Shown: positions 21,554-38,944, numbered from the stretch's first letter. The stretch is DNA of 64,000 nt from an uncultured Candidatus Saccharibacteria bacterium (GCA_964626635.1 CAZVFY010000004.1:530-64529); one strand, 5' to 3'. Notes: generated by a model from the sequence alone, not told the origin. Translations and numbers: made by a program.

Positions 21554-22372
21554 ATGGATAAGCGGGAGCTTAATCAGAAACTGGCAGACATCGCAAGCAC
21601 TTTTTCGGTTGCCAAGAGCAAAATAAAAGCTCAGGATGTTGGTTTCAAAATCACACCTCGTGAACTCAAGGATCCAATGGATAAATTCAATGCTGGTAAA
21701 CCAATTACTGGTGTTGAACTGCAAAAGATTTCTGAAAATTGGCAATCAAAAGCTCCACTCGTTGATGAGGATGGTAACGCGTTTGTGCTTTATATTCCTG
21801 ATTGGCAATTCAATTTCAATAGAGGGAGAAATAACCCTGCTGATTTGCATAAATACCATGTTTCATGGTGCGGTGTACTTGAATATATGCAAGGCGCAGG
21901 TCGTTTCAAGCGGTACATCAAGAAAACTAATATTGAATCAAATATCTTTCTAGGTAAGCAAGCTGATGACAGAAACGCAGAAAGTGTCTTATACGCTTGT
22001 AAGACCTGCAGAAAGAAGATGGCGGAAGTGGCAGGTCATAGTCTCTATTTCAACGTTGAAAATATGGACATACTCAAGTTTTTTGCGAAGTACGGCAAAC
22101 AAGATATGCTCGACCCTAAGACTAATCGCTTATATTCTGTGGTCTATCCCAAGCACTGGCAAGAAATTTCTAAAAAATACCGTGAACAAGCTAATTGGAC
22201 TTGTGCAGAGTGTCATAAATCGTTTGAGCATAATCGAGCCATGTTAGATGTTCATCATATTGATGGTGTTAGGAGTAACGTAAAAAATACTAACTTAAGG
22301 GTTTTGTGTAAGGATTGTCATGCAAAACAACCGATGCATGGACATTATAAACAACTTATAAAAAATACTTAA
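21554..22372 (+). CDS. HNH endonuclease (ZorE-like effector candidate)
   Basis: C-terminal CAECHKSF…LDVHHIDG…N…NLRVLCKDCHA HNH motif with two CxxC pairs; 3-nt gap after the MotA-like gene. Confidence 0.65.
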   Translation: MDKRELNQKLADIASTFSVAKSKIKAQDVGFKITPRELKDPMDKFNAGKPITGVELQKISENWQSKAPLVDEDGNAFVLYIPDWQFNFNRGRNNPADLHKYHVSWCGVLEYMQGAGRFKRYIKKTNIESNIFLGKQADDRNAESVLYACKTCRKKMAEVAGHSLYFNVENMDILKFFAKYGKQDMLDPKTNRLYSVVYPKHWQEISKKYREQANWTCAECHKSFEHNRAMLDVHHIDGVRSNVKNTNLRVLCKDCHAKQPMHGHYKQLIKNT

Positions 22373-22384
22373 AATTATCTTGAA

Positions 22385-23737
22385 TTAGGCGCTGTTTAGC
22401 AATTCCACCACTTTATCCTCAACCAGCACCTGACTCTTAAAGCATCCCATCAATTCACGCTTTTCTTCATTCGAGCCTTCTTTGAGCAGATACTTGGTGT
22501 ACGTTTTTAGTTCGACATCTTTGTGTTTCTCCCTATTTCCTGCAACACCCAGTACACCTTTGTGGAATTTATTAAAACGTTTAAGTTCTTCCTCGAATTT
22601 TATTTGCACGCCAGTTCTGTTTAGGTCAATTTTATCCATCAGTTTTATAAGCTGTTCTACCAAGTCTTCCTCTCGTAAATATGGATTTTTGCAGTGTCGA
22701 TCTTTTGATCGACCGCATCCGTAGTATATATACTTGGCAGACGTACCGTCCTTCAGCTGTTTGTATTTCTCTTCCGCAGAAATTCCCGAGCCACACAGTC
22801 CACAGGTCATGAGCTTTGTGAAAGCAAACTCTCTAGATTGACGAACAATATTGTCTCGTTTGAGTTGCTCTTGCACTTTATCAAAAAGCTCTTTGTCGAT
22901 AATTGGTTCATGTTTGCCGTCGTACCAATTACCACTCCCACGGGGGTATTCAAACTTGCCGTAGTAGAAGGTGTTTTGCAGTGTGCGGTATACGTTACTC
23001 AACGCTAATGGCTTGTTGCCTCTAGTATGAAAATTAAGCTCAAAGCGTAGCCAGTGATATATCTTTCGACCAGACCATTTATCATTTCCCATCTTCTCAA
23101 AGATTTGTCGTACTACATGAGCTCTTTCTGTATCAATAATTACCTGACACTTCTTATCAATATGTTTTTGGTTCAGGTATCCAACTGGCGCTACACCCGG
23201 CCACAATCCCATCTCACACCGTGTCCGCAGTCCGCGCTTCACGTTTATGCCTCGGTTATCGTTTTCAAGTTTTGCTTGACTACCAAGAATCATCAAGAGA
23301 AACTTCTCGTTTGGGTTGTTAGTGAATGTTTGGCTAAAGGTACGTATCTCATGCAACTTTCCAGCATCCATAAGGTCGACAATCTTTCCCAAGTCCCCAG
23401 CATTTCGTGAGATTCGATCCGGTGCCCACGTCAGTATGCTATTGTATTTACCATCGTATATCTCACTGACAATTTCATTAAAGACTGGCCTACAACCAGT
23501 CTCCTTGGCTGAGTGACTTTCTCGCTTCATGGAGACTATCTCCAATCCGTCACGTTCGGCTAGCTGAAGCATTTCCTTAATTTGTGAGTCAATTGACATC
23601 ACTTGTCGCTCTTCACTTTCAGTACTTTTTCTTGCGTATAGGCAATACTTCAGTTTTGTTGTTTCTTCCATACAACCACATTGATGACGCAACAGCCTTG
23701 ATGAGTCCAGAGCGTCCTCGCTCCCTATAGTTGACAT
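22385..23737 (-). CDS. large serine recombinase
   Basis: Resolvase catalytic domain (YARKSTE…SIDSQ), recombinase domain, zinc-ribbon (CGLCGS…CGRS…HC) and coiled-coil; likely true start at internal Met near 23671. Confidence 0.85.
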   Translation of the reverse strand: MSTIGSEDALDSSRLLRHQCGCMEETTKLKYCLYARKSTESEERQVMSIDSQIKEMLQLAERDGLEIVSMKRESHSAKETGCRPVFNEIVSEIYDGKYNSILTWAPDRISRNAGDLGKIVDLMDAGKLHEIRTFSQTFTNNPNEKFLLMILGSQAKLENDNRGINVKRGLRTRCEMGLWPGVAPVGYLNQKHIDKKCQVIIDTERAHVVRQIFEKMGNDKWSGRKIYHWLRFELNFHTRGNKPLALSNVYRTLQNTFYYGKFEYPRGSGNWYDGKHEPIIDKELFDKVQEQLKRDNIVRQSREFAFTKLMTCGLCGSGISAEEKYKQLKDGTSAKYIYYGCGRSKDRHCKNPYLREEDLVEQLIKLMDKIDLNRTGVQIKFEEELKRFNKFHKGVLGVAGNREKHKDVELKTYTKYLLKEGSNEEKRELMGCFKSQVLVEDKVVELLNSA

Positions 23738-23756: not shown

Positions 23757-25226
23757 ATGCATCGCCTGACCAAGACCGATTTCATCCAGTTTCTCAACTG
23801 CCCAAATTCATTGTGGCTCTTGAAAAATAAGCCTGACCTATACAACACGTATAAGGGCGAGTTTTCGCTGTTTCTTGAGAAATTAATTCGTGAAGGATAT
23901 GAAGTGGAAGAATACGTAGCTAGACTATACCCACAAGCAGTTGATTTAGAACACTGCACATCCGAGGAAGTCGTTAATCACCTCAAAATACCTGGCTGGT
24001 ATACCCAAGCCACACTCGCAACTGACAGTGGTCTCTATGCTCGTATGGACATGATTGAAGTGACATCGTCAAATACACTCACTATTTACGAGATCAAGTC
24101 ATCAACGTCAGTCAAAACGGATAAGAAACACAACCACCTGAAAGACATTTGTTTCCAACAATTTGTTGCTGAAGAAAACGGCTACGTAGTGTCGGCCGTA
24201 CAACATGTACATCTAAACAAGGAGTTTGTGAAAGCTGGTGACATTAACCCAGCCGAACTACTGCAAATTGAAGATGTTACTGAAGCAGTTTCTGCCATCT
24301 ATGCTCAAACTAAGGAAGAAATTAAAGCAGCTTTAGAACACATCAACCGCTCTGAAATTAACGAATCATTGTGCACTTGTATTGATACTACACGAGCTAA
24401 CCACTGTGATACTTTTTTATATTTCAACCAGTCGATACCGGAACATCCTATCTATGAACTAAACAATATTCGTGACGCTAAGATTCAGGTGTTACGAGGC
24501 GGAAATGTTGTGAGTATTGGCGAGATTTCAGCTGACTTTAAGCTCTCGCCATATCAGACACTACAAAAGCAATCAGTTGATCGTGGTGCAGCAATTATCG
24601 ATCATCAAGCTATTGCAGAAGCACTCAGTGACCTTGCGTTCCCACTCTATTTCTTCGACTACGAAACTTTACCGTTTGCGGTACCACGAGTCTCTGGGTA
24701 TAAGCCACACCAACACACACCAGTGCAGTACTCGCTCCATATACTTCATGAAGACGATTCGCTTGTGCATCATGAGTATTTAGCAGACAATCTAGAGCCA
24801 CCAGAGAAACTCATCCAGTCCATGCAAGAGCATATCGGTACTACTGGCACACTAGTATCTTGGTATGCCTCATTTGAGAAGACAAGAAATCGTGAAATGG
24901 CTGAACTATATCCAGCATACGAGCCATTTCTAACCAATCTGAACGACCGCACCTACGATCTGATGGACATTTTCAAGAAAGACTACGTAGATGCAAGGTT
25001 TGAAGGTTCTCAGTCAATCAAGAAGGTGCAACCAGTGTTGGTTCCTGATCTGTCATACAAAGCACTAGAAGTACAAAGTGGCACGATGGCAGTCGACGCG
25101 GCCGAGCGACTGTATGAGATGACAGATGAGTCCGAGATTGCAGAGTTACGAGAAGCCATGTTGCAATACTGCAAGTTGGATACTCTGGCAATGGTGAAGA
25201 TTTATCAAAATCTTAGAGACTTGTAG
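23757..25226 (+). CDS. DUF2779 domain protein (Cas4-like PD-(D/E)XK N-terminus + DnaQ-like exonuclease C-terminus)
   Basis: N-terminus LTKTDFIQFLNCPNSLWL and FFDYETLPFAVP…HTPVQYSLH match DUF2779 hallmarks. Confidence 0.6.
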   Translation: MHRLTKTDFIQFLNCPNSLWLLKNKPDLYNTYKGEFSLFLEKLIREGYEVEEYVARLYPQAVDLEHCTSEEVVNHLKIPGWYTQATLATDSGLYARMDMIEVTSSNTLTIYEIKSSTSVKTDKKHNHLKDICFQQFVAEENGYVVSAVQHVHLNKEFVKAGDINPAELLQIEDVTEAVSAIYAQTKEEIKAALEHINRSEINESLCTCIDTTRANHCDTFLYFNQSIPEHPIYELNNIRDAKIQVLRGGNVVSIGEISADFKLSPYQTLQKQSVDRGAAIIDHQAIAEALSDLAFPLYFFDYETLPFAVPRVSGYKPHQHTPVQYSLHILHEDDSLVHHEYLADNLEPPEKLIQSMQEHIGTTGTLVSWYASFEKTRNREMAELYPAYEPFLTNLNDRTYDLMDIFKKDYVDARFEGSQSIKKVQPVLVPDLSYKALEVQSGTMAVDAAERLYEMTDESEIAELREAMLQYCKLDTLAMVKIYQNLRDL

Positions 25227-25440
25227 CCTCCAAACATGAAGCAAGGTGGTCTGGAGTCAAGAACGCAAAAATAATGTTGCGTGCTATAATGCTTTCATCA
25301 CGAGAGTGATTTTGATCTTTTTACAATAGTAAAAGGGCCCAACCGCCGCATATCTTTATGCGATGAGTGGTTCTAAAATCCGACAAAAGTAAAGAGCTCC
25401 TTATGAGTTCACTTTTGTCGGTCCCCAGCAGGAATGTTGG

Positions 25441-27222
25441 GTGGGTTCTTCGGAACCGGCTCGTAGGGAGTTTTTTGCTACCCGAACTGTCCCAACCATC
25501 AATGATGAGTGGATAGAAAAACCGACAAACATGACAAATACAAATACTCAGGATGAACTTCAAGATCGTATTACCGAACTTGAAGCAGAAATTTCAATAT
25601 TAAGACAACAAAAGAAATATGGTCTTGTCTGGGAAGACAAACCTGAAGATGTGGTGATGCAATGTGAGACTCATGTACCAGTTTTGTCAGAGGTCAAGTC
25701 AAAGAAGATATCTGATCAAACAAAGCTTGAAGAGAATATTTTAATTGAAGGTGATAACTACCATGCATTGTCTGTTCTGAATTACACTCATCGTAAGTCA
25801 CTTGATCTTATTTACATAGATCCTCCATATAACACTGGGGCTAGAGACTGGAAATATAATAATGACTACGTTGATAGTGATGATGCATTTCGTCACAGTA
25901 AGTGGCTTTCATTGATGAATCGGAGATTGCTGCTTGCAAGAAACTTGCTGAAAGATAGTGGCTCGCTAATTGTTGCAATTGACGACTATGAGTTAGCTAC
26001 GCTGGGTCTTTTGCTCAAGCAGGTATTACCACACTACGTACAAGACTTAATTATCATTGAACATCACCCACAAGGTGCTGGTTCAAATACTGTTTCGCGT
26101 ACTCACGAATACGCATATTTAATGACCCCACCAGGGCAAGGAATTCCAAATAGACCTCGGCGAGAAGAAAGGCAAATATGGTCACTTCGAAGATCGGGGC
26201 AAGGTGAAAATAACTGGCGAGCATACCGACCTAATCAGTTTTTTGCAATACTTGTAGATGAGAAAACAAGACAAGTCATCGGTGTAGATAAGAAATTATC
26301 TAAGAATGACAAGTACGACCTAGGTGATACGAAAGAGGGTTACAAACGTATCTATCCAATTGATGGGTCAGGCGGTGAGCGTGCGTGGAGATATAGTTTT
26401 GAATCCATGCAACGACTTATTGATCAAGGCAAAGTTGAGTATACCGATCGTGGGGCGCTGGCTGTCGTGAAAGACGTGGTATCAGCAGTGCCAGTATCGA
26501 GTATTTGGACCGGATCAAAATATAACGCCGGATCTCATGGTAGCCAGCTACTGACTAAAATCTTCGGCAAAAGCGCTGCCTTTCCGTATCCAAAGTCTTT
26601 TCATAACACTTATGACTTAGTTGATTTATTTGTTGGTAATAAGCCAAATGCTAAGGTCCTTGACTTCTTTGCTGGCTCAGGCACAACCGGTCACGCTGTT
26701 CTTGAACTCAACAAAGAAGATGGGGGCAATCGGCAGTTTATCCTCTGTACTAATAACGAGAATAAGATCGCCGAAGAAGTCACGTATCCTCGGGTGAAGA
26801 AAGTGATTAAAGGCTATGGCGATGTTGAAGGTCTTGGTGGCTCACTCCGCTACTACAAAACCAAACTAGTCGACGTTGAAAAACTCCAAAAAGTACCTGA
26901 CGAAAAACGGTTGTCGCTCACATATCAAGCTGGTGAGATGATCGCTTTACGTGAGAATACGTTTGAGGAAACTGAGAAGAATGACTGGTGGCAGATTTTC
27001 TCCAGTCAAACTAAAACCGTTGCTATCTACTTCCAAGAAGACAAGCAGAAACTACGTGAGTTAGTAAAGAAACTGAGTACCAAGCAAGAAGTGGTGTTGT
27101 ATGTATTTTCATGGAGCAAGAACGAATACACTAATGAATTTGCCGAGTACGACAACATTCGGGTGGAGGATATTCCTGAGCCAATCATTGAAGTTTACAA
27201 AGAAATTAACCGCCTGAAATAA
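25441..27222 (+). CDS. mod: Type III restriction-modification methyltransferase (Mod)
   Basis: Motif IV DLIYIDPPYNTG precedes motif I DFFAGSGTTGHAV (beta-class permutation); GTG start, alternative ATG at 25531. Confidence 0.8.
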   Translation: MGSSEPARREFFATRTVPTINDEWIEKPTNMTNTNTQDELQDRITELEAEISILRQQKKYGLVWEDKPEDVVMQCETHVPVLSEVKSKKISDQTKLEENILIEGDNYHALSVLNYTHRKSLDLIYIDPPYNTGARDWKYNNDYVDSDDAFRHSKWLSLMNRRLLLARNLLKDSGSLIVAIDDYELATLGLLLKQVLPHYVQDLIIIEHHPQGAGSNTVSRTHEYAYLMTPPGQGIPNRPRREERQIWSLRRSGQGENNWRAYRPNQFFAILVDEKTRQVIGVDKKLSKNDKYDLGDTKEGYKRIYPIDGSGGERAWRYSFESMQRLIDQGKVEYTDRGALAVVKDVVSAVPVSSIWTGSKYNAGSHGSQLLTKIFGKSAAFPYPKSFHNTYDLVDLFVGNKPNAKVLDFFAGSGTTGHAVLELNKEDGGNRQFILCTNNENKIAEEVTYPRVKKVIKGYGDVEGLGGSLRYYKTKLVDVEKLQKVPDEKRLSLTYQAGEMIALRENTFEETEKNDWWQIFSSQTKTVAIYFQEDKQKLRELVKKLSTKQEVVLYVFSWSKNEYTNEFAEYDNIRVEDIPEPIIEVYKEINRLK

Positions 27223-27223
27223 C

Positions 27224-29521
27224 ATGTTTGCCCTCAAACCATTCCAAGAAAAAGCTCTCACTGACCTTCGTTCCGTCTTCCTCAATTTATGGAAGCGCGA
27301 AGAGTCTCAGTTACCGTTGGTATTTCAGTCACCGACTGGTTCAGGGAAGACCATCATGACAGCTCAGTTCCTGAAAGACCTCACCGGCGACCCACAGTTC
27401 CAAGCAGACAAAGCGTTCTTGTGGATTTCATTTAGCCCCGACTCATACCAACAAAGTAAAGATAAACTATATAAATATTATGGTGGTGCAGGCGAACTCA
27501 ACTTGCTCGACATGAACGATCTCTCGCAAGGCAAGTTATATAACAATGACGTCTTTTTTATCAACTGGCAGAAGGTCGTATCAAAAGCCAAAGAGAACCG
27601 TAAGCTTCGTAGTGAGAACGAACAAGGTGTTTGGTTTGATCGATTTATTGAAGCTACTAAGTCAGCTGGTCGTGAGTTAGTGCTATTGGTAGACGAAGCT
27701 CATACGCACTCTAGTACAGCACTAGCACAAGAAATCATCGACCTCATTGACCCACGTATCATCATCAAAATCACTGCCACTCCGCAAGATACTGATGTAG
27801 TGCAAGCCGCTAAACTGGGATCGTATGTACAAGTAGATCGTGAGGCGGTTGTTGAGCAAGGTCTAATTAAAGAAAAACTTATTTTCCAGACCGAAGATGA
27901 GGTGAAGAAGCTTACTTCTAAACACATCTCCAAAGATGAAGTATTGCTCAAGCTGGCTGTACAGAAACGAGCTGAACTTGAAGTGGGTTACCAAGAAGCG
28001 CAAACATCTGTTAAACCACTCGTTCTGATTCAGCTCCCAAACGACTACAAAGAAACTAAAGTAGTTGAAGTAGACTCGAAAGAAGCCTTGGTGCGACAGT
28101 TTCTCTCAGAACAAGGTGTGCTCGATCACCAAATCGCTACCTGGCTATCTGGTCGGCAAGAAAATCTAGATGGTATCGAACGTCACGACTCACCAATTGA
28201 GTATCTCATATTTAAACAAGCAGCCGCGACTGGTTGGGATTGTCCACGAGCTAGTATCTTGGTAATGTTTCGAGAAATTAAAAACCCAACATTTCAGATA
28301 CAAACCATCGGTCGTATTCTGCGTATGCCTGAAGCCAAGCACTACAGTTTGCCACTATTAAACAGCGCCTATATCTACACTGACTACGAGCGAAATACTA
28401 TTATTGATGGTTATGATCGTGACGCTAACGCGAGTTCATTGCCATCGTGGAATCGTATCGAACGAAAGTCAGATATTGAGCCAATAACACTTACGTCTCA
28501 CGACTTATCCCGTACTGACTACAACGACCTTGGCGATAGTTTTCAGCACACTTTTTTGGAACAAGCACACAGTTTCTTTGGTACTACTGATAAAACTAAA
28601 CCAGCAACTGTCTTGAAGCAACTTAAAGAACAAGGTCTAGCGGTCGATGGTGTCCATCAAGATATCATTGTAAACCTTGAAATCGAAGACTATGATAACT
28701 ACCTAGAAAATCTCCAAGCTCATGGAGTGACCGCGTCGACTGAACTAACAGAGACAGATGTTGAGCGTATCTATAATCTTCTGTGCTACGACATCGTTGC
28801 CAAGCAAGACGAAGAAAAAGCTAAGTACGCACCAGCTCGGTCATGGGGCAAGCTCAAAACTGCACTTAATGTGTGGCTTGGAACTGCCACTAAGCTCTCA
28901 CGTTCAGAAATCTACGCTATGGTGGTAAATGATCTCAGTCGTCCAGCTAGCGTACTGCGGCCACTTGTCACGAAATCGTTTATAGCATACCGCCCCGTGC
29001 GTGACGGTGAAGTGATTAAGAAACAAGAACGCCAGCAAACAGTCCGTACGCTTGAACTTCCACCGCAGACACTATTTGTATCAGATGGTATCAAGAAGAA
29101 ATACCAGAAATCCGCCATGGAACCAGTGCTCACACCTGACCATATGCCAGACAATGAGAAGAAATTCATCGACTTTCTCGAAGATCACGCAAAAGTACAG
29201 TGGTGGTACAAAAATGGTGACAAAGGTACGGAACACTTTGCGTTGCCTTACACGCACAATGGCAAACAAAATCTCTTTTACCTTGACTGGATTATCAAAA
29301 CTAAATCATCTCTCTGGATTATCGACACTAAGAGCGGTATGACCGCCAAAGACGCAGAGACAAAAGCGAAAGCTGAGTCACTGCAACAGTGGCTCAAAAC
29401 ACAGACTGGTATTGAAGGCGGTATTGTCCGCCCAGCTGACGGTTGGTTTATCCATCGAGGCAAGAAATATGCCTATGAACTGGAGAATGGCTGGGAGGAC
29501 TTGAACAAAGTGCTGGTTTAG
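27224..29521 (+). CDS. res: Type III restriction enzyme Res subunit (SF2 helicase + C-terminal PD-ExK nuclease)
   Basis: Motif I SPTGSGKT, DEAH, motif VI QTIGRILR; C-terminal YLDWII…LWIIDTKSG nuclease motif; 1-nt gap after mod. Confidence 0.85.
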   Translation: MFALKPFQEKALTDLRSVFLNLWKREESQLPLVFQSPTGSGKTIMTAQFLKDLTGDPQFQADKAFLWISFSPDSYQQSKDKLYKYYGGAGELNLLDMNDLSQGKLYNNDVFFINWQKVVSKAKENRKLRSENEQGVWFDRFIEATKSAGRELVLLVDEAHTHSSTALAQEIIDLIDPRIIIKITATPQDTDVVQAAKLGSYVQVDREAVVEQGLIKEKLIFQTEDEVKKLTSKHISKDEVLLKLAVQKRAELEVGYQEAQTSVKPLVLIQLPNDYKETKVVEVDSKEALVRQFLSEQGVLDHQIATWLSGRQENLDGIERHDSPIEYLIFKQAAATGWDCPRASILVMFREIKNPTFQIQTIGRILRMPEAKHYSLPLLNSAYIYTDYERNTIIDGYDRDANASSLPSWNRIERKSDIEPITLTSHDLSRTDYNDLGDSFQHTFLEQAHSFFGTTDKTKPATVLKQLKEQGLAVDGVHQDIIVNLEIEDYDNYLENLQAHGVTASTELTETDVERIYNLLCYDIVAKQDEEKAKYAPARSWGKLKTALNVWLGTATKLSRSEIYAMVVNDLSRPASVLRPLVTKSFIAYRPVRDGEVIKKQERQQTVRTLELPPQTLFVSDGIKKKYQKSAMEPVLTPDHMPDNEKKFIDFLEDHAKVQWWYKNGDKGTEHFALPYTHNGKQNLFYLDWIIKTKSSLWIIDTKSGMTAKDAETKAKAESLQQWLKTQTGIEGGIVRPADGWFIHRGKKYAYELENGWEDLNKVLV

Positions 29522-30558
29522 TCGGTAGTGACAATCAAGTTTCGTAGTTGTTGTTCAACATCATACGCATCAGCGTGAGACAAGACACCAAGAAATGATT
29601 GCAGTGAAGCATTAAGTTTATCCTCTTCAATCTCACCAGCTTTGTATTCTCGCACTTTTTCAGCAAACTTACGTTGCATCCGTCTTTTAGTTTTAGTCCT
29701 CACCGATCGGTGATGTGGTCGTATGACATAACCAAGAAAATCGATACCTGATTTCAGCGTTCGGATTGATACTTTCTCAGGGTGTAGTTCCAGCTCCAGT
29801 CGCACACGCAAAAATGCTGTGATTGAGGGTAACAGTGATTGTAGATAGTCGTGAGAATCAGAAACTATCACAAAGTCGTCTGTGTACCGAGCATAGTGCT
29901 TCACTTTCAATTCGTGCTTCATGAATTGATCAAACTCGTTCATGTACACATTCGCAAACAGCTGTGACGTCAGGTTACCAATCGGCAGGCCTCGTTGCTC
30001 GAACAATGATTCAGACGTGGAAAAGCTACTCACTATTTCTTGCAGTATCCACTGCACATCTGGGTCAGTAATTTTACGAAACAACAACTCCAACAAAATC
30101 TCATGATCAACACTATCAAAAAACTTCTTAATATCACACTTCAACACAAAACAAGGATGCGTATAGTTTTTGCTCACCTTTCTCGTTATGGTTTCCAGTC
30201 GCTTCATGCCAACATGATTACCTTTACCAATTCGACACGAGAACGAATCGTTAATAAAGGTGGGCTCAAACAATGGGTTCAGGAGCTTAAACAAAGCATG
30301 ATGCACCACCCGATCGCGAACGGTTGCTTTGTGGATGTGTCGCACTTTTGGATCAGAAATGTAGAAACCAAAGTATGGTTGGTGACGGTATGTTTTATCT
30401 CGCAAATCTTCATGCAACGACAACAAGTTTTGCTCCAATCGATACTCAAACAACGCTACGTCTTTCTTCTTGCGTTTACCTTTCTTAAACCGATCCCACG
30501 ACAACAGCAAGTTAGCTGGTGAAATTATTAGTCTGTATAGATTATTAAACGTTTTCAT
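29518..30558 (-). CDS. diversity-generating retroelement reverse transcriptase
   Basis: RT motifs 1-7, including ATVRDRVVHHAL and the DGR-typical GLPIGNLTSQLFANVY; YTDDFVIV (YxDD); strong resemblance to Bordetella phage bRT. Start set at MKTFNN. Confidence 0.9.
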   Translation of the reverse strand: MKTFNNLYRLIISPANLLLSWDRFKKGKRKKKDVALFEYRLEQNLLSLHEDLRDKTYRHQPYFGFYISDPKVRHIHKATVRDRVVHHALFKLLNPLFEPTFINDSFSCRIGKGNHVGMKRLETITRKVSKNYTHPCFVLKCDIKKFFDSVDHEILLELLFRKITDPDVQWILQEIVSSFSTSESLFEQRGLPIGNLTSQLFANVYMNEFDQFMKHELKVKHYARYTDDFVIVSDSHDYLQSLLPSITAFLRVRLELELHPEKVSIRTLKSGIDFLGYVIRPHHRSVRTKTKRRMQRKFAEKVREYKAGEIEEDKLNASLQSFLGVLSHADAYDVEQQLRNLIVTTD

Positions 30559-30906
30559 ATGAATGAATTTGATGTTCCGATTTTTCAAAAGTCATACGAT
30601 TTGTATAAACAAATGCATGAGTATCAAAAACTGATTCCTAAGCACGATAGATACACGGTATATAGTCGCGCCGAAGATTGTTTATTGGCAGTGTTGTCAA
30701 GCTTGTTCAAAGCTAGTGCTGCCAACAAAAGTAACAAACTTATCTTGCTCGAAGAGGCTAGCACCGAACTCAACCTGCTCCGCGTGTTTTTACGACTTCT
30801 CAAAGACATCAAGTCACTCGATAACAACAAATACCTGTCGTTGCAGTCTGAAATAGATGAGATTGGTCGTATGCTGGGTGGCTGGATAAAGTCGGTCAAG
30901 AGATGA
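30559..30906 (+). CDS. avd: DGR accessory variability determinant (Avd, four-helix-bundle protein)
   Basis: …AANKSNKLILLEEASTELNLLRVFLRLL…DEIGRMLGGWIKSVKR aligns with bAvd (…AGKSNQVSKLYAADAGLAMLRFWLRFL…AEVGRILGSWIARVNR); 115 aa. Confidence 0.8.
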   Translation: MNEFDVPIFQKSYDLYKQMHEYQKLIPKHDRYTVYSRAEDCLLAVLSSLFKASAANKSNKLILLEEASTELNLLRVFLRLLKDIKSLDNNKYLSLQSEIDEIGRMLGGWIKSVKR

Positions 30907-30951
30907 CAAAACGCATCCATTATGGATGCGTTTTGTGTCAGCGAGACATTT

Positions 30952-31077
30952 CGGAAGAACACCCGAAGCCGACCCATAGTTGTCGTTGGCATTGTCGGTC
31001 CAGTTCGTGTCGAACTTGACCTTGCCGTCGTTGAACTTGAAGTTCGGGGCGTGGTCAAAGCGATCATCGGCATCCGG
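30952..31077 (-). repeat. DGR template repeat (TR)
   Basis: ~126-bp copy of 31465-31590. Every one of ~20 mismatches sits where this copy has A (minus strand) and the other copy has a different base. Confidence 0.85.
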
Positions 31078-31347
31078 CTACTGTCTGTATCCATCCGTAC
31101 CACCAACAATTGAGTATGATTCTTGTTGGCAACAAGATATGCTCTCGTGTTTGTATTTTATGTGAAAGCAGAGGCTGTAATAACCCCATCTTTACCAGAC
31201 ACAGACAAGCAATGTCTTTGTGACGATAGTGCGCTCACTATATCCATAGACACAGTGATTCTGACTATTTCTTTGTCGAACAAAGAGAGTACGGTGGCAG
31301 AAATCCGTAAACGCCTGCTCAATACGGTAACTCATAGGTAGTATAAC

Positions 31348-31382
31348 AAAAAAGATGCCCCTGACCGTTTCCAGTCAGGGGC
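31348..31382 (-). terminator. rho-independent terminator for DGR target gene (9-bp GC stem + T-run on minus strand)
   Basis: gcccctgac-cgtttcca-gtcaggggc preceded on + strand by AAAAAAG. Confidence 0.5.
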
Positions 31383-31458
31383 AAAATTTGCATCGAGTTG
31401 CTTCGCAACAAGTCAAAAATCAAAGACTCAAAAGGTTCAAGCCTTCAATTTTCAAAGA

Positions 31459-32370
31459 TCACTGCGGAAGAACACCCGAAGCCGACCCATAGCGGTCGTC
31501 GGCATAGTCGGCCCAGAACGCGCCGAACTTGACCCCGCCGTCGTTGAACCCGAAGACCGGGGCGCGGCCAAAGCGACCATCGGCAACCGGATCATCGAAC
31601 TCGTCGCCAGCGCAGTCAATCCAGAGATCGTCATAGCGCTGGAGACGTTCGGGATGGGTGAGCAACATGACACCGACAGCAAACGAACCGAGACCGTACT
31701 GACCCTGGTCGACCATGACCTCGCGAGCACGGCGAACCGAACGACCGCGATGAGTGAGACCGAACTGGGCAGCGATCACGAGGATATCGGGATGACCCTG
31801 TTCCTCGGAAAGCTTCCGCATCGTTGCTTCGGTACGAGCCGATTGGCGGAGATGCTTCGGGCCGAGCTGACCGTCACGGTAGTTGTAGAACGCACCGTCA
31901 CGATCCTGCTTGATCAGGTCGAGGACGCGAACAACATTGTCGTTGTAGGTGCCGGGCACGGGCGAATTGTCCTTCCAGATGTTGGGGATAGCGAACCATC
32001 CTTCGGCACCCTTGGGCAGTTCGCCCGGGTCGGCAACTTCGGCCCCTTCTAGCTGCGGATACAGCTCCTTGAGACGCGTGACCTGATCGGCGAGCTGCTT
32101 GGGCTCGTAGCCCGACAGGTAGCCATAGGTCGATTCGACCTCTTCATCTTTGTATTTGTCGTTGGTCGACAGCTCAGTGAGAGCGAGGACGGTCGCTGCA
32201 TGAATGCGGGCAGAAAAGTCTGCACTGCCTTTCACACGTTCAGCACCTTGCTTGCTGAGATAGTTGGCGTCGGCATAAGCCTTCACCGCCTTCTCGACAG
32301 CATCGGTAGCCATGCGGTTGAGTTGCTTGACTTGACCGTCAGTGGCCAGTTCATGAGTAAGCGTTGTCAT
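31459..32370 (-). CDS. DGR target (variable) protein; VR occupies last ~42 codons
   Basis: C-terminus …DDRYGSASGVLPQ encoded by the VR; the conserved 3' end is shared with the TR. Confidence 0.8.
   Translation of the reverse strand: MTTLTHELATDGQVKQLNRMATDAVEKAVKAYADANYLSKQGAERVKGSADFSARIHAATVLALTELSTNDKYKDEEVESTYGYLSGYEPKQLADQVTRLKELYPQLEGAEVADPGELPKGAEGWFAIPNIWKDNSPVPGTYNDNVVRVLDLIKQDRDGAFYNYRDGQLGPKHLRQSARTEATMRKLSEEQGHPDILVIAAQFGLTHRGRSVRRAREVMVDQGQYGLGSFAVGVMLLTHPERLQRYDDLWIDCAGDEFDDPVADGRFGRAPVFGFNDGGVKFGAFWADYADDRYGSASGVLPQ
31465..31590 (-). repeat. DGR variable repeat (VR)
   Basis: Homologous to TR, with substitutions exclusively at TR adenine positions. Confidence 0.85.
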
Positions 32371-32423: not shown

Positions 32424-32480
32424 AAATGAGACAAACACACTATTTCCCAACGAGTGGGAGACAGTGTGTTTGTCTCATTT
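32424..32480. other. perfect 18-bp-stem hairpin with a nested 5-bp hairpin in its loop
   Basis: aaatgagacaaacacact-[atttcccaacgagtgggagac]-agtgtgtttgtctcattt; between the DGR target start and the upstream gene stop. Confidence 0.7.
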
Positions 32481-32537: not shown

Positions 32538-34031
32538 TCAATCTGACGCTGTCGCCTTCCATTCTGTTAGCTTACTGGCTTCTTCTTCAAATCGCTCTAA
32601 ACTTTTAAACTGTTTTGGTTCTAAGTTATGTAGCTCAATACCAGGATCAGGCAGGAATATCTGCAAGGGGTATTTATCCTTGTTGTCATACACCATCTGA
32701 TTTATGTGGTCATCAAGATGACGAAAGCAAAAGTTGAGTAACTCCACCGACTTCGCAATTTCATCTAGCTGAGCGTTGATTTTGTGCGTCACATTAACAC
32801 CAATCATCTCAGACATCCGTTCCGCTACTTCCTTGAAAGCGAGAAGATATTGGTAGTTCTCATAGACATGAGATTGATGAAGTAGGTAGTTAGGGAAAGC
32901 GAATAGTATAAGGTCGTCTACCTGCTTTTCGTATTCAGTCACAAATGCTGACTGTGACTTAGACTTCACCAAGCTTTTACCTGAGATGTATGTTTTGTTA
33001 AGACTCACTTCAAAGAACCGAGTTGGACACTGCTCGATCTCTATCTTTCCGTTCTTGATCAATGTCTTTAGTTTTCGTTCACTTTTATCTTTGGCTTTGA
33101 GCCACAACTGCATCAGTTCGTTATGTGGTAACTTGGTCTCTCCTTCGTAGGTAGTGTGACCAGTGCAGTTACACAGTGGTATGTACTCACTAAAGAATAA
33201 GCCATCACGCACAGTGTCACTTACCACCTGTTCTAGCTTGTATCGGAGATCACTTAGCTGACCGAGCTTGGTGCGCAGTTCGTCCTCGTCTTCATATGCA
33301 ATGTTATGTCTTGATGCCAGTCGTTTGCCGAACTCAAGCATTGAGTAGCCAGCAAAGTGGGTATTAAAGAGCACTTGCTTTATATTGATCTTTTTATCGA
33401 GAAAAGACAGCTCATGTCCCCACGGAATCGTATCGATAATGATTTTGGTTAATGTCTCTACGTCTCCATCATTTAATGACTCTTTGCCGTGTACTATGCG
33501 AGCTAGTTGTTCCTCAGTTAAAAAGTAGCTGTGATTAGTATCTGCAATGGAGTCTAAGAGTAAGATGTCTGACTGAATATCTTTTGGTAATGAGTGTAGT
33601 GTGACGAGGTGTGCCAGTCGGTCGTATTCATACCCAGAGTATTGCAGAAAAAATTGACGCAGCTCTTCTCGTTGATCATCGGGAATAATCCGATCAAGAT
33701 AATATTTCCGTTGTCCTTCATCGTTCTTTTTAATATCAAACAGTGTTGCGGTATGCTCGAGGCGAGATAGTGCCAGCATAGTCGTGAGGTAATTAGTCTG
33801 CATATCAAACTCCAGTCGCCCGAACATATCCCAGAGATTGATGTACTGATTGTATTTTTCGGCTTCACGATAGTCTTGAGGTTTCCAGTTTATGGTCAGT
33901 GCCACCATATCTGCCTCACTAATCAGCTCCTTGCCAGTCTTTTGGAAATGAGCATCATTTCGGATCACTAAAAGTACCCGCTCTTTCGGCGTTAGGTTTC
34001 CTTTGCGTAGCATTTTAGTGATGTCTTTCAT
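32538..34031 (-). CDS. hypothetical protein (497 aa)
   Basis: Long ORF, no recognisable motif. Confidence 0.5.
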   Translation of the reverse strand: MKDITKMLRKGNLTPKERVLLVIRNDAHFQKTGKELISEADMVALTINWKPQDYREAEKYNQYINLWDMFGRLEFDMQTNYLTTMLALSRLEHTATLFDIKKNDEGQRKYYLDRIIPDDQREELRQFFLQYSGYEYDRLAHLVTLHSLPKDIQSDILLLDSIADTNHSYFLTEEQLARIVHGKESLNDGDVETLTKIIIDTIPWGHELSFLDKKINIKQVLFNTHFAGYSMLEFGKRLASRHNIAYEDEDELRTKLGQLSDLRYKLEQVVSDTVRDGLFFSEYIPLCNCTGHTTYEGETKLPHNELMQLWLKAKDKSERKLKTLIKNGKIEIEQCPTRFFEVSLNKTYISGKSLVKSKSQSAFVTEYEKQVDDLILFAFPNYLLHQSHVYENYQYLLAFKEVAERMSEMIGVNVTHKINAQLDEIAKSVELLNFCFRHLDDHINQMVYDNKDKYPLQIFLPDPGIELHNLEPKQFKSLERFEEEASKLTEWKATASD

Positions 34032-34033
34032 AC

Positions 34034-34240
34034 TTACCTTCGTTCACTTAAGAGTTGTTCTAATACATCGATACGTTGTTTGAGTTCAAGGTTAGAGATA
34101 TTCTTCGATAGAGCTAGTGCTAGTCGAGAGATGGTTTGTGCTCGCTTCGGTGAAATTTTGCGAGTAGCGACTTGTAGCAAGGCTTCAGAGAGAATTACGT
34201 TCACTTCTTCTAAGGTGAGTAATTTTTGTGTTTCGTTCAT
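34034..34240 (-). CDS. hypothetical small coiled-coil protein (68 aa)
   Basis: ORF 2 nt downstream of the next gene. Confidence 0.35.
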   Translation of the reverse strand: MNETQKLLTLEEVNVILSEALLQVATRKISPKRAQTISRLALALSKNISNLELKQRIDVLEQLLSERR

Positions 34241-34242
34241 AT

Positions 34243-34635
34243 TTAATAATTTTCGATTAATTCAAACCACGTCTTTACTTCCTTCGACTTACCGTGCTTC
34301 GTGACGTTCTTATACAAAGCCAGCACCACGTTTGGGGTTAGCTTTCGTGCCCACGCACAAGTGTGTTCGACCAACCCTTCTTCTTCGATAATCTTGTTCC
34401 AGTCAGTGAGCGTACCAAGGTCTTTGATATCGTATTCCGCTGCAAAATCTTTTTGAGTTTTGATACGAAGCAAATCAATCACTACTTCGTCCTCAATACC
34501 CATCTTGCGTATCACCGCTTCTGGCTGACCACGAAGAAACGTTGGTAGTGACTTCCATGTTACGTAGGTGGTAAAATCTTGTTTGCGGTACACACCATCA
34601 CTTTTCTTTGGTTGTTCATTGTGGGGTGTGTTCAT
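34243..34635 (-). CDS. hypothetical protein (130 aa)
   Basis: ORF overlapping the methyltransferase gene by 20 nt. Confidence 0.4.
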   Translation of the reverse strand: MNTPHNEQPKKSDGVYRKQDFTTYVTWKSLPTFLRGQPEAVIRKMGIEDEVVIDLLRIKTQKDFAAEYDIKDLGTLTDWNKIIEEEGLVEHTCAWARKLTPNVVLALYKNVTKHGKSKEVKTWFELIENY

Positions 34636-35392
34636 AATTCCTTACCAATTTTCGTTTCTGACCCGTTAGTTTCTCCAGTCGCTTAAGTGCAATCTCCACA
34701 TACTCGGCATCTTGCTCAATCCCAACGCACTGCCGACCCAACTGTTCGCAAGCGAGTGCTGTACTGCCACTTCCTAAGAAGCCATCAAATACCACGTCCT
34801 CAATCTTGGTGACATTACGAATCAGTTTACGAAGTAGCCCAATCGGCTTTTGGGTTGGGTGGAGTTTCGATTTCTGTGGTCGTGGATGATAGATCGCACT
34901 CCGCATTTGTGACGCTAGCTTCTTATGCTTACCAAACCAGCCATAAGCGATAAGTTCTTGTTGGGGCAAGTAGTCCATCCGACCCATGACAGGTTGATTC
35001 TTTAGCCACACTAACATCTGGCTGAAATGAAATTCAGCTGTGTATACGCCGGTGCGTAGTGCCAAGAACATCGTGTCACAGTTAAAGATATGAAAGGTGT
35101 TGTATGTATCGAGGTGTGGTTTGATGGAATCAAGCCACGACTCGGTAAAGCGAGCGTATTCGTACTCACTCTGGAGATGATCACCCTTGATAGCTTTGGC
35201 GTTAGACACACCGAGCTCAGCCACTCCTTCTTTATTTTGAACGTACGCCACTCCATACGGTGGATCGGTCACAATCGCTCGTACTTTCTGACCCTGCAAT
35301 ACTTCAGACACAAACGAAGCGTTGCAGCTATCACCACAACCAATGAGATGTGTACCTACTAGGTAGATGTCTCCGTGTCGTATCTTTTTCAT
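34616..35392 (-). CDS. DNA methyltransferase (beta-class N6A/N4C, pfam01555-like)
   Basis: IVTDPPYGVAY (motif IV) then HPTQKP and VVFDGFLGSGSTALAC (motif I). Confidence 0.8.
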   Translation of the reverse strand: MKKIRHGDIYLVGTHLIGCGDSCNASFVSEVLQGQKVRAIVTDPPYGVAYVQNKEGVAELGVSNAKAIKGDHLQSEYEYARFTESWLDSIKPHLDTYNTFHIFNCDTMFLALRTGVYTAEFHFSQMLVWLKNQPVMGRMDYLPQQELIAYGWFGKHKKLASQMRSAIYHPRPQKSKLHPTQKPIGLLRKLIRNVTKIEDVVFDGFLGSGSTALACEQLGRQCVGIEQDAEYVEIALKRLEKLTGQKRKLVRNYEHTPQ

Positions 35393-36672
35393 ACGCGCTT
35401 AGCAGTTTGCTTTGTAAACTTCTCGAAGCGGTCAATGATGACACTCGCAAATACAGGATCAAGCTCGACTCCATACCACTTACGATGCAATTGTTCGCAG
35501 GCAATTAGGTCACTGCCACTGCCTCCAAAGCCAGAAAACACAACGTGACCGGGAGCAGTACAACGCTTCAGGGGTTTTTCACTCAAACCAACAGGCTTCT
35601 GTGTCGGGTGCAAATAATCTTGGGTGTTGTCTCGCTTCACAATCCACAAATCGATCATGTCTAGCAATTCTTCATGGAGCTGATTACCACTTGATACTTC
35701 TTGGTTCAATATCTCGTGAGCGTTCTTGAGATTCTGATTCAGATGTGGTTTGCCAGTAGTACCGTAAATACAGGGCTCATGGACTCGATTGAAAGCCGTC
35801 TGCGGGGTCGGGTTCATGTTGTTTTTTGCCCACAAACAGAGTCGCTTGAAGTGTATCTTTTGCTCTGCAAATATTGTCTGAAGTGCACCGATGTACTTGG
35901 AATCATTCCAGACAAAGTAGTGTGCATTTGGTAGTGCAATTGTTCGGGCAGTTGCAAGACTCTGGGCTAGAAACTCTATATATGCTTTGTCAGTTTTTGA
36001 ATCATCTTTAGATGAATAACCGCCTCCATATTTTTTGCCGTTTCCAATACCTTTGTCATATGAAAGCCCAATATTATAAGGCGGATCAAAATAAATTAGA
36101 TGCGCTTTAGTGTCACCCATGAATTTAGATACCAGCTTTTGGTCAGTTGAATCGCCCACGAGCAGGAAATGTTCACCTAATTGCCACACTTCACCAGTCT
36201 TGGCTCTTGGCTTATCCATTTCTTCAATCGCTTTCTCAACATCATAGTCGTCCTCAGCCAATTCAACGTCATCAAAAAAGTCTTGCAGTTCTTCGTCCGC
36301 AAACCCAACGTCAAGCAGGACATCGAGGTCAAATGCCTTCAGAAGCTCTTCATCCCAAGACCCGGTGTTGTGATTTAAGCGAAGATTCAGCTCACGTTCT
36401 TCTTCGAGTGTGAGTTCCCGAGAGGGAATCATACACTCGACTTCTTTGTATCCAAGGTCAGCGTATATCTTTACTCGTTGCTCACCCCCGATCAGAACAT
36501 CAGCTCGTGAGCCGATGTTTAGCACTACTGGTACCACCGCACCAAATTCCTCGATTGATTTTTGAAGATTGTGCCGTTCTTCTCCCTCCATCTTGCGTGG
36601 GTTATACCCATTGGGTGTGAGGTCTTTCACCTTACGCTTCGTGGATGACCACGTTATCTTTTTCGATTTCAT
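35389..36672 (-). CDS. ParB-like nuclease domain / DNA methyltransferase fusion
   Basis: N-terminal ParB/Srx fold (…NPRKMEGEERHNLQKSIEEFG…); LIYFDPPYNIG; HPTQKP; VVFSGFGGSGSDLIACEQL. Confidence 0.8.
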   Translation of the reverse strand: MKSKKITWSSTKRKVKDLTPNGYNPRKMEGEERHNLQKSIEEFGAVVPVVLNIGSRADVLIGGEQRVKIYADLGYKEVECMIPSRELTLEEERELNLRLNHNTGSWDEELLKAFDLDVLLDVGFADEELQDFFDDVELAEDDYDVEKAIEEMDKPRAKTGEVWQLGEHFLLVGDSTDQKLVSKFMGDTKAHLIYFDPPYNIGLSYDKGIGNGKKYGGGYSSKDDSKTDKAYIEFLAQSLATARTIALPNAHYFVWNDSKYIGALQTIFAEQKIHFKRLCLWAKNNMNPTPQTAFNRVHEPCIYGTTGKPHLNQNLKNAHEILNQEVSSGNQLHEELLDMIDLWIVKRDNTQDYLHPTQKPVGLSEKPLKRCTAPGHVVFSGFGGSGSDLIACEQLHRKWYGVELDPVFASVIIDRFEKFTKQTAKRV

Positions 36673-38730: not shown

Positions 38731-38746
38731 GAGAGTGAGGGATTCG
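38731..38746. repeat. inverted copy of tRNA-Ser 3' end (gagagtgagggattcg)
   Basis: Reverse complement of cgaatccctcactctc; ~115 bp left of the direct copy. Confidence 0.7.
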
Positions 38747-38862: not shown

Positions 38863-38880
38863 CCGAATCCCTCACTCTCC
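38863..38880 (+). repeat. attR-like 18-bp direct repeat (cgaatccctcactctccg)
   Basis: Identical to tRNA-Ser 3' end 13695-13712. Confidence 0.8.
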
Positions 38881-38944
38881 GTATCCTCAAGCTAGCCCGA
38901 CCGCCTCTAGTTCATAGAGCAGCCGAGACACGTTCGAACTTAAC

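Follow-up and report, generated by a model that had tools for sequence, protein, structure and literature searches.

In the Bordetella phage BPP-1, the diversity-generating retroelement (DGR) runs mtd-VR, avd, TR, Sp and brt, and the 140-nt Sp, with its priming adenosine, lies downstream of TR. In retrons, the msr-msd transcript has a structured RNA ahead of the template (5'), pairing joins the template flanks, and the nucleotide that primes through its 2'-OH is placed in this arrangement. DGRs account for ~80% of CPR reverse transcriptases (RTs) (PMC8632793), and 90% of a CPR set have the B3 layout, namely TR-(avd)-RT with a reverse-strand avd (Wu et al. 2018, PMC5758913). DGR clade 2 has been described as cell-encoded and restricted to CPR/Patescibacteria (Roux et al. 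2021, PMC8144416).

Here we analysed a 64,000-nucleotide stretch of DNA (the window) that carries a cassette of this kind. With a probability of roughly 0.9, we read it as a complete, apparently intact DGR of the CPR/Patescibacteria lineage, laid out as target-VR followed by TR-(avd)-RT (Table 1). The B3 layout is present, and the locus resembles CPR-lineage DGRs (B3/clade 2) in gene order, inverted avd, CPR host, Pfam-less target and C-terminal VR; the cassette itself showed no difference from them. It also shares several features with BPP-1, namely a full-length RT match, an Avd homologue, adenine-only substitutions at codon positions 1 and 2, a C-terminal VR of (here predicted) CLec type and an invariant 3' IMH-like segment. 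In both, a stem-loop follows TR directly, and the two may be equivalent, judging by position alone.

Table 1. Features of the DGR locus (window coordinates).
Feature	Position	Strand	Details
RT (DGR type)	29518-30558	-	346 aa; ATG at 30558; Pfam RVT_1 2e-26; PHROG 1423 1e-121
avd	30559-30906	+	115 aa; Pfam bAvd PF22296 8.4e-20; NCBIfam NF033474; PHROG 3206 'Avd protein of DGR'
Hairpin 3' of TR	30906-30936	-	touches avd stop codon; A-tract 5', T-tract 3'
Conserved tail 3' of TR	30937-30951	-	consensus AAGTCTCTCC; window sequence AAATGTCTCGCTGAC; alignments A2, A4
TR	30947-31077	-	adenine-variable tract 30980-31073; invariant IMH*-like 3' part 30952-30979
Structured non-coding leader	31078-31336	-	~255 nt folded; adjoins TR 5' end directly; RNAalifold on alignment A3
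Leader helices P1-P4	P1 31333/31285, P2 31327/31293, P3 31318/31297, P4 31267/31227	-	alignment A3
Leader helices P5-P8	P5 31258/31235, P6 31208-31197/31092-31081, P7 31193/31165, P8 31151/31105	-	alignment A3
Extended -10-like box	31340-31348	-	TG-n-TATACT; consensus TTTTTGnTATAnT; ~7 nt before helix P1
Intrinsic terminator of target gene	31356-31383	-	12-bp stem, then T-run
NTTGA array	31413-31456	-	six motifs spaced 7-9 nt; directly 3' of VR and stop codon
Target gene	31459-32370	-	303 aa; N-terminal helical domain, then predicted C-type-lectin-like domain ending in VR
VR	31460-31590	-	variable tract 31493-31586; IMH-like invariant part 31465-31492

TR and VR differ only at TR adenines

An earlier note on this DNA had described two ~126-bp repeats with about 20 mismatches, all at minus-strand adenines of the copy at 30952, and a conserved IMH-like 3' end. 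Realignment bore out each of these points. In an ungapped alignment, TR and VR differ at 21 of 131 nt, and all 21 mismatches fall on the 33 adenines of the TR copy. Of these, 19 lie inside the 126-nt core (30952-31077 / 31465-31590), which contains no non-adenine difference. The remaining two (TR 30951 and 30949) belong to an AAG (versus CAG) difference that is fixed across all related loci; from this pattern, they are better read as marking the IMH/IMH* boundary than as mutagenesis. The shared 3' segment comprises 28 identical nt (31465-31492 = 30952-30979), consistent with a role as IMH. Beyond it, VR continues with CAGTGA and the NTTGA array, and TR continues with AAATGTCTC and the hairpin. 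Further VR-like copies were not found in the window.

An ordinary duplication with a chance adenine bias would account for the existence of the repeat and nothing further, and we rejected it as having next to no likelihood. The hypergeometric probability of 21 out of 21 mismatches on 33 adenines is 3.4e-16. Moreover, every one of the 29 adenines in the variable tract is at codon position 1 or 2 (with six AAC/AAT codons), a DGR RT and Avd are encoded next to the repeats, and the same adenine pattern appears in ~40 independent loci. These are CPR genome loci with the same cassette, and as cassette and adenine bias are common to them, the element belongs to an already known kind. In related loci with the TR-(avd)-RT order, mismatches are likewise only or almost only at A (18/18 in L005, 24/24 in L022 and 24/24 in L056).

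The locus encodes a DGR-type RT and an inverted avd

The RT carries the motif GLPIGNLTSQLFANVY (29944-29991, residues 190-205), which contains the DGR signature [LIV]GxxxSQ rather than the group II/retron motif, and a catalytic YTDD at 29875-29886. Its top PDB match was bRT (8ub7_A), with an end-to-end alignment at E 5e-44, whereas group II intron RTs reached 8e-23 and a retron RT 2.7e-4. The RT and bRT have an identical PIGxLTSQLFANVY core, and both have YxDD. RTs beside target homologues in CPR MAG loci of the same layout are 50-64% identical to it. By similarity searches, rather than phylogeny, the RT is of DGR type, in agreement with the DGR-clade motif pointed out in the earlier note.

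Judged by profile scores, Avd is bona fide, reaching 88.3 bits with the NCBI curated model NF033474 (cut-off 80) in addition to its bAvd match. Whereas the identity assigned in the earlier note thus holds, the orientation had been overlooked: avd is on the plus strand, opposite RT, TR and target. Its ATG abuts that of the RT (CATATG), so the two genes stand head to head with an intergenic gap of 0, an arrangement that recurs in ~45 related loci.

The variable protein has a predicted C-type-lectin-like C terminus

VR encodes the final 43 aa of the target, matching the last ~42 aa to which the variable residues had previously been assigned, and this C terminus is hypervariable across the target family. 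There are 21 variable codons, which allow ~4e17 possible peptides. The N-terminal domain is a three-helix domain. Structure prediction, proposed earlier as a way to look for a C-type-lectin or Ig-like VR scaffold, yielded a model in which the C-terminal half is predicted to adopt a C-type-lectin-like fold displaying VR.

Family searches with the target gave no match in Pfam (including FGE-sulfatase and DUF1566), NCBIfam or PHROG; a profile search against PDB sequences returned nothing relevant, and BFVD structures gave no match at E<=0.001. Nor does the target match Mtd-type families at the sequence level. From the CLec-fold variable proteins of solved structure (Treponema TvpA 2y3c, Mtd, Thermus TaqVP and archaeal AvpA) and from FGE/SUMF-type domains it differs in its three-helix N-terminal domain and in the absence of a secretion signal, and its fold comes from a predicted model only. 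The protein has no signal peptide, transmembrane segment or lipoprotein/secretion signal.

The DGR sits in a defence island of a CPR chromosome

The DGR is located in a ~25-kb mobile tRNA-Ser island that also holds Zorya II and a type III R-M system, in line with the defence island of the earlier note, and two DNA methyltransferases flank the target as well. Housekeeping genes lie on either side, and the RecG encoded in the flank shares 80-82% identity with proteins of Ca. Nomurabacteria. On the basis of these neighbours, the host is a Nomurabacteria-like CPR bacterium, and the DGR is cell-encoded in its chromosome.

This setting bears on the possibility of a phage or prophage DGR that switches tropism as in BPP-1, with the target as a receptor-binding protein. 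Searches of Pfam, PHROGs and NCBIfam revealed no capsid, portal, terminase, tail or lysis genes in the island, and the target lacks a PHROG family or BFVD match, as noted above. Relatives are encoded on only three viral contigs, compared with 200 confirmed loci in genomes, almost all on Patescibacteria (CPR) MAG contigs, and the CPR DGR clade has been described as cell-encoded (PMC8144416). We therefore regard a phage origin as improbable.

The same neighbourhood raises the idea that the target works in the cytoplasm as a hypervariable sensor, an innate-immunity-like receptor that belongs functionally to the defence island, rather than as an adhesin. DGRs have been suggested to act in immunity (PMC10053308), the target shows no signal peptide or transmembrane segment, and it is flanked by the type III R-M system, the two methyltransferases and Zorya II. 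In addition, several CPR MAGs (L030, L036, L042, L044 and L064) share synteny over the block ParB-MTase/MTase/p130/p68/p497/target/TR/(avd)/RT/(Res)/(Mod). However, neither an effector nor an NTPase domain is recognisable in the target, and most DGR loci of its family are without R-M and methyltransferase neighbours, universal co-occurrence being limited to RT and avd. Co-location may merely reflect shared carriage on a mobile island, and we consider the sensor function doubtful.

A conserved folded RNA precedes TR

Directly upstream of TR, and on the same strand, lies a leader whose fold is shared by 36 loci (alignment A3). RNAalifold placed 52 pairs, 39 of which show compensatory changes. 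The leader was 96.9% paired compared with 40-53% when slid, and its covariation was 0.636 versus 0.31 (shuffles, 0/500); the single-sequence z-score was -2.35. Many conserved G-U pairs are compatible with the TR strand only. A leader profile (nhmmer) found one copy per locus, exclusively where a TR/DGR is present, and the leader accompanies TR even where the cassette is inverted with respect to the target, as in nine loci of A3. For the leader/TR region, Rfam gave no match at E<=10.

The -10-like box ahead of the leader is conserved (A3 columns 1-13), including in inverted-cassette loci. From this position and conservation, we infer that it is the promoter of a leader-TR RNA; a scan for consensus promoters missed the box owing to its lack of a -35. 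At the other end, the hairpin 3' of TR has 12 pairs, 11 of them with compensatory changes (alignment A2, 32 loci), and was 91% paired compared with 36-54% when slid (shuffles, 0/500). It is probably a bidirectional terminator and/or an Avd-binding stem-loop, the latter having been proposed for many DGRs (bioRxiv 10.1101/2023.10.23.563531).

Between TR and the hairpin, tail positions 30944-30950 are complementary to leader positions 31211-31217. This pairing was 83% paired, with 6 compensatory pairs compared with 1.8 in shuffles (0/500), values that come from few variable columns and 13 compensatory cells. The leader strand 31217-31197 thus has complements on both sides of TR, in the tail immediately 3' and in the 12 nt immediately 5': helix P6 abuts the TR 5' end, and the leader-tail pairing abuts the TR 3' end. 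By position, these pairings may correspond to the duplex that joins the TR flanks in BPP-1-type DGR RNA.

Conservation of this RNA also speaks to whether the DGR is silent or fossil, that is, whether TR/VR differences stem from past activity and the target is no longer diversified. VR is the same at all adenine positions in assemblies of samples 3300040787, 3300040788, 3300040798 and 3300040799, and the sole polymorphism seen in VR, a synonymous G/T at 31486, is at a non-adenine site; yet consensus assemblies hide minority variants. Cell-encoded DGRs are reportedly less active, as Roux et al. are cited in PMC8632793. By contrast, all three ORFs (RT, Avd and target) are intact, with the catalytic YTDD present, and the leader RNA structure is under purifying and compensatory selection family-wide. 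Long inactivity would also be expected to add some non-adenine differences to the 126-nt core. A fossil state is therefore unlikely in our view, and we retain the reading of an apparently intact DGR.

A phased motif array follows VR

The NTTGA array found after VR is absent after TR. Related loci keep it as CTTGA repeats with a ~10-nt phase, and YTTG density was 5.6 per 75 nt in DGR loci compared with 3.7 in loci without a nearby DGR (p=1e-4). This distribution makes the array a candidate target-site recognition element. The hairpin at the position of the target terminator is also conserved in related loci.

Discussion

Several features set this locus apart from BPP-1. The avd gene is read from the opposite strand, the variable protein is no tail fibre, and the element resides in a CPR bacterium and not in a phage. 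VR is followed by a phased NTTGA array instead of a GC-rich IMH and cruciform, and the TR RNA is apparently transcribed from a promoter of its own and ended by its own terminator. In place of an Sp downstream of TR, a structured RNA of ~255 nt lies upstream of it. A 140-nt Sp would not fit downstream of TR, because the avd stop lies only ~40 nt away and the conserved tail plus a single hairpin fill that distance. These features suggest that the priming domain is upstream of TR, as opposed to downstream in the Bordetella phage.

In the mechanism we propose, a dedicated RNA would be transcribed from the extended -10 box at ~31340-31348 and would comprise the leader, TR, the short tail and the hairpin, which would end it just before the convergent avd. 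RT and Avd would bind this RNA and copy TR to cDNA, misincorporating opposite adenines, and the leader strand 31217-31197 would probably fix where the cDNA starts and stops. The cDNA would then replace VR, with the invariant 3' segment 31465-31492 as a guide and the NTTGA array past the stop codon perhaps as another. Such replacement would recode the 21 variable codons, giving ~4e17 variants of the ligand-binding face.

By analogy, the layout resembles retron msr-msd in having a structured RNA 5' of the template and paired template flanks. We draw it as an analogy and not as membership: the RT is DGR-type, Avd is present and the template has a protein-coding VR as its homologue. For this CPR DGR lineage we tentatively suggest a rearranged, retron-like DGR RNA, a possibility we take seriously with the odds somewhat against it. 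Here, the 5' leader would serve as protein-binding/priming domain, its strand 31217-31197 would clamp the TR ends, the RNA would form its own transcription unit with a bidirectional terminator shared with avd, and the NTTGA array would mark the recipient site.

In the literature, of which the CPR-DGR part was covered incompletely, we found neither the leader with its pairing on both sides of TR nor the NTTGA array described, so these features may already be known. The element itself is ordinary, and the new details are the large conserved folded leader, its apparent pairing beside TR, the covarying hairpin after TR and the NTTGA array. If the proposed arrangement is true, the leader would represent an undescribed class of structured RNA without an Rfam family, and DGR cis-priming would have been solved in a second way.

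Template and variable repeats differ only at adenines

A repeat search of the 28.5–33.5 kb interval returned a single long direct repeat of 131 nt, with copies 84% identical; one copy, the variable repeat (VR), forms the 3′ end of the ORF encoding the 303-amino-acid target protein. On the minus strand, the template repeat (TR) and the VR differ at 21 positions, and 21 out of 21 fall on an adenine of the TR, a pattern expected by chance with a probability of 3.4 × 10−16 given 33 A per 131 nt. These adenines are replaced in the VR by G (14), T (5) or C (2). Two of the mismatches, at TR 30951 and 30949, are part of a difference (AAG in TR, CAG in VR) that is constant in essentially every related locus, with proteins that all end in PQ; we therefore read them as the boundary between IMH and IMH*, the invariant 3′ segments of VR and TR, which leaves 19 true A-to-N changes. 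These make up the 126-nt core for which the earlier note had reported divergence at TR adenines alone, and on pairwise realignment every mismatch indeed stays at a TR adenine, with no non-adenine difference in the core. In the variable tract, each of the 29 adenines occupies codon position 1 or 2 of the target reading frame, and the 21 variable codons give access to approximately 4 × 10^17 peptides. A blastn search with the TR found no second VR, VR-like copy or remote target in the window.

Reverse transcriptase and Avd are encoded head to head

The reverse transcriptase (RT) finds its best match among PDB sequences, by far, in the Bordetella phage enzyme bRT (8ub7_A; E = 5 × 10−44, residues 4–332 versus 5–313), ahead of RTs from group II introns (8 × 10−23) and a retron (2.7 × 10−4); by similarity it is of the diversity-generating retroelement (DGR) type. 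Its core reads GLPIGNLTSQLFANVY, compared with GIPIGSLTSQLFANVY in bRT, and its catalytic box is ARYTDDF. None of the curated NCBIfam cut-offs for group II, retron or Drt families was reached, and a search of a phage DNA collection yielded a single 53-nt RT match and nothing further.

The identity of Avd likewise holds (88.3 bits against an NCBIfam cut-off of 80), although the close resemblance to phage bAvd that had been proposed does not, as direct similarity is weak (E = 6 × 10−4). The avd gene also lies on the plus strand, opposite RT, a detail missed in the earlier note; JGI gene calls for the same contig concur. The two ATG codons stand back to back as CATATG (30556–30561) with zero intergenic bases, as they do in about 45 related loci; the promoter and ribosome-binding site of each gene would have to sit within the other. 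Both the original observation and its interpretation as a DGR were right, with the exceptions of avd strand and of the degree of likeness to bAvd.

Features of the window, with strand and supporting matches
Feature	Position	Strand	Evidence or remark
tRNA-Ile, anticodon TAT	6935–7011	−	
tRNA-Ser(GCT) 3′ end	13693–13711		CGAATCCCTCACTCTCCG
ZorB	19798–20508	+	ZorB2, 3.5 × 10−68
ZorA	20513–21550	+	ZorA2, 1 × 10−55
ZorE	21554–22372	+	ZorE2, 6 × 10−47
Large serine recombinase	22385–23737	−	PHROG, NCBIfam
DUF2779/Cas4-like protein	23757–25226		
LOOT RNA	25336–25457	+	Rfam RF03000, 55 bits (gathering score 46.4)
Type III R-M system	25441–29521		Pfam
RT	29518–30558	−	Pfam RVT_1; PHROG 1423, 1 × 10−121
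avd	30559–30906	+	Pfam bAvd, 8.4 × 10−20; NCBIfam ‘DGR protein Avd’
Hairpin	30906–30936		Perfect; ends at avd stop codon
Tail after TR, paired segment	30950–30944	−	AATGTCT
TR	30947–31077	−	
Leader of TR RNA	31078–31336	−	About 255 nt
Clamp strand of leader	31217–31197	−	Consensus GGAGATACTGCTTGCTTTTGTCT
Clamp strand, 5′ half	31217–31211	−	AGACATT
Helix P6	31208–31197 with 31092–31081	−	12 nt
Promoter-like box	31340–31348		TTTTTGnTATAnT
NTTGA array	31456–31413	−	Six motifs, 7–9 nt spacing
VR	31460–31590	−	3′ end of target gene
Target gene	31459–32370	−	303 aa
Inverted repeat, 26 nt	32424–32480		92% complementary, 5-nt loop
ParB-methyltransferase, methyltransferase, p130, p68, p497	32538–36672	−	Two DNA methyltransferases, three unknown genes
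tRNA-Ser(GCT) 3′ end, inverted copy	38731–38746		16 nt
tRNA-Ser(GCT) 3′ end, direct repeat	38864–38882		18 nt

The cassette belongs to a CPR lineage of DGRs

Scanning genomes with the alignment of the target gave 200 confirmed loci, 80 of which were kept. Almost all of these are on contigs of Patescibacteria metagenome-assembled genomes (MAGs), and 2.9 million viral contigs contributed only 3 loci. RT and avd occur within 5 kb in about 45 loci, always head to head, with a TR of about 131 nt on the RT strand just past the avd stop codon; the target gene may face either way relative to this TR/avd/RT core. TR/VR mismatches again fall only or almost only on TR adenines (for example, 18/18, 24/24, 24/24, 21/21 and 20/20). 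Two further loci (L032 and L033) have a leader and a TR with adenine-biased mismatches, without RT or avd inside the locus; in another (L070), avd and RT directly follow the target, without leader or TR.

[quoted passage not shown] Given its B3 layout and these descriptions, the cassette is a typical member of a well-described CPR lineage and in itself unexceptional.

Synteny extends beyond the cassette. The block ParB-methyltransferase, methyltransferase, p130, p68, p497, target, TR, avd, RT, Res and Mod recurs in several CPR MAGs at 50–63% identity (L030, L036, L042, L044 and L064), and the family-less p497 shares at least 90% identity with protein USN88391.1 of a complete Ca. Nomurabacteria genome. 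A serine recombinase lies near the cassette in 10 loci. Across the related loci, no gene besides RT and avd co-occurs universally with the cassette; two apparent co-occurring ‘families’, of 17 and 9 loci, turned out to be spurious ORFs that overlap the target gene.

A conserved structured leader adjoins the 5′ end of the TR

Upstream of the TR lies a leader conserved across 36 aligned loci. Nine of them carry the cassette in inverted orientation to the target, which assigns the leader to the TR and not to the 3′ untranslated region of the target. RNAalifold predicted a fold of 52 pairs from the 36 loci, 39 of them with compensatory changes; 96.9% of the leader cells are paired versus 40–53% when the partner strand is slid, covariation is 0.636 versus 0.31, and 0 of 500 shuffles did as well. 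The leader RNA is thus strongly supported by covariation. Its frequent G–U pairs are compatible with the minus (TR) strand only, the window sequence by itself folds with z = −2.35, and the promoter-like box stands about 7 nt ahead of helix P1. An nhmmer profile of the leader matched 53 of 87 sources, exactly once in each and only alongside a TR or DGR. A search of Rfam 15 with 30850–31480 (E ≤ 10) gave no match except chance miRNA-like ones on the hairpins; the only DGR RNA motif that we found in the literature is RT-10, which lies between TR and RT in BPP-1.

Directly after the TR comes a hairpin with an A-tract before it and a T-tract after it. Across 32 loci, 12 pairs are kept, 11 with compensatory changes, and 91% of the cells are paired versus 36–54% with a slid partner (0 of 500 shuffles as good). 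The probable role of this hairpin is that of a bidirectional terminator separating the TR RNA from the convergent avd. For 207 of 278 DGRs, CPR ones among them, Handa et al. predict an Avd-binding stem-loop just downstream of the TR (bioRxiv 10.1101/2023.10.23.563531), and the hairpin may also be this element.

One leader strand could clamp both ends of the TR

The most conserved leader segment, the clamp strand, has pairing partners on both sides of the TR. Its 3′ half forms helix P6, which ends 3 nt before the TR and shows compensatory changes in 9 of 12 pairs. The conserved tail after the TR is complementary to the 5′ half of the strand; across loci this second pairing is 83% complete and shows modest covariation, with 6 compensatory pairs versus 1.8 in shuffles (0 of 500 as good), on just 13 informative cells. 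The TR would then be a loop held at both ends by a single leader strand, an arrangement that suggests control over both the start and the stop of cDNA synthesis.

In BPP-1, the TR 3′ end pairs with the downstream spacer to place the priming adenosine, and synthesis is stopped by a duplex of TR-flanking sequences. Judged from their position, the leader elements could play the same priming and stop roles, with the difference that the primer side lies downstream of the TR in BPP-1, whereas here it would come from upstream. By this analogy, we tentatively propose that priming in this lineage takes place on the 5′ side of the template.

A recipient-site candidate and signs of activity

An array of NTTGA motifs directly follows the VR stop codon. 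Related loci keep it behind their target genes in the form of CTTGA repeats phased at about 10 nt, and YTTG occurs 5.6 times per 75 nt after targets with an adjacent DGR versus 3.7 after those without (p = 1 × 10−4). The array is absent after the TR. It is a candidate recipient-site signal, but is also present after some targets without a nearby DGR.

With all parts intact and the 126-nt core free of non-adenine differences, the DGR is likely to be currently active. On the other hand, contigs from four samples (JGI 3300040787, 3300040788, 3300040798 and 3300040799) have an identical VR at all adenine sites. Within the VR, only position 31486 is polymorphic (G/T, synonymous); it lies in the invariant part and is also the only difference between locus L001 and the window over 7.4 kb. 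A second, co-occurring haplotype in one sample (L088) has 11 differences in its first ~70 nt (window ~31453–31384), downstream of the target stop codon and not adenine-specific, and has no differences across the DGR cassette, beginning with the terminator. Near the VR, contig breaks (L002, L003, L087 and L088) were considered as a sign of VR heterogeneity; they are explained by the 31486 polymorphism, beside which L087 starts, and by the second haplotype. A metagenome contig scan with fixed flanks and N{90,98} gave 0 matches, as the strain is absent from that collection; the pattern does match the window.

The target protein represents a large family

The target has more than 2,262 homologues and no family match in Pfam, PHROG, NCBIfam or PADLOC. 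An alignment of 40 homologues is well conserved to about residue 260, beyond which invariant scaffold positions (F267, A270, P271, F273, G278, V280, F282, G295, S296, S298, P302 and Q303) alternate with fully variable ones. A BFVD fold search returned nothing at E ≤ 0.001, and a PDB sequence-profile search with the target family gave one chance match only. The 26-nt inverted repeat lies between p497 and the target start codon.

The DGR sits in a tRNA-Ser island with defence genes

The window is chromosomal, with genes for FtsH, RecG, malic enzyme, glutamate dehydrogenase and PilM. RecG shares 80–82% identity with proteins that bear the name Ca. Nomurabacteria or Pacebacteria, which identifies the host as a CPR bacterium; a CPR-type island in a non-CPR host, an idea raised by the flank GC of 0.55, was rejected on the same likeness to Nomurabacteria. 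The uncommon bacterial anticodon TAT is found in the tRNA-Ile.

GC falls from about 0.55 to 0.37–0.47 across ~14–39 kb, and repeats of the tRNA-Ser(GCT) 3′ end around this stretch indicate an integrated island of about 25.2 kb bearing the DGR. The island holds a multicopper oxidase, a type II Zorya system, the recombinase and the Cas4-like gene, with the DGR between the type III R-M system and the block of two DNA methyltransferases and three unknown genes. We found no phage structural genes in it. With Zorya II, type III R-M and two DNA methyltransferases present, ‘defence island’ is a fair label for the setting. The LOOT RNA either overlaps the start annotated for the type III methyltransferase gene or lies directly upstream of it.

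Significance

Thousands of DGRs are already known, and this one is a further example with a layout standard for CPR. It places the cassette in a tRNA-Ser island alongside defence genes, links a very large Pfam-less protein family (more than 2,200 members) to diversification by DGRs, displayed on a predicted lectin fold, and reveals conserved RNA and DNA elements with strong covariation around TR and VR. Added interest comes from the leader RNA and, tentatively, from priming on the 5′ side, neither of which was in the earlier note. To our knowledge, the mechanism by which DGRs reverse-transcribe is understood solely from work on a single phage, in which the priming domain is downstream of the template. 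If true, a lineage with an upstream priming domain would put to the test which mechanistic features are essential, and would offer a compact alternative scaffold for engineering DGR-based mutagenesis.
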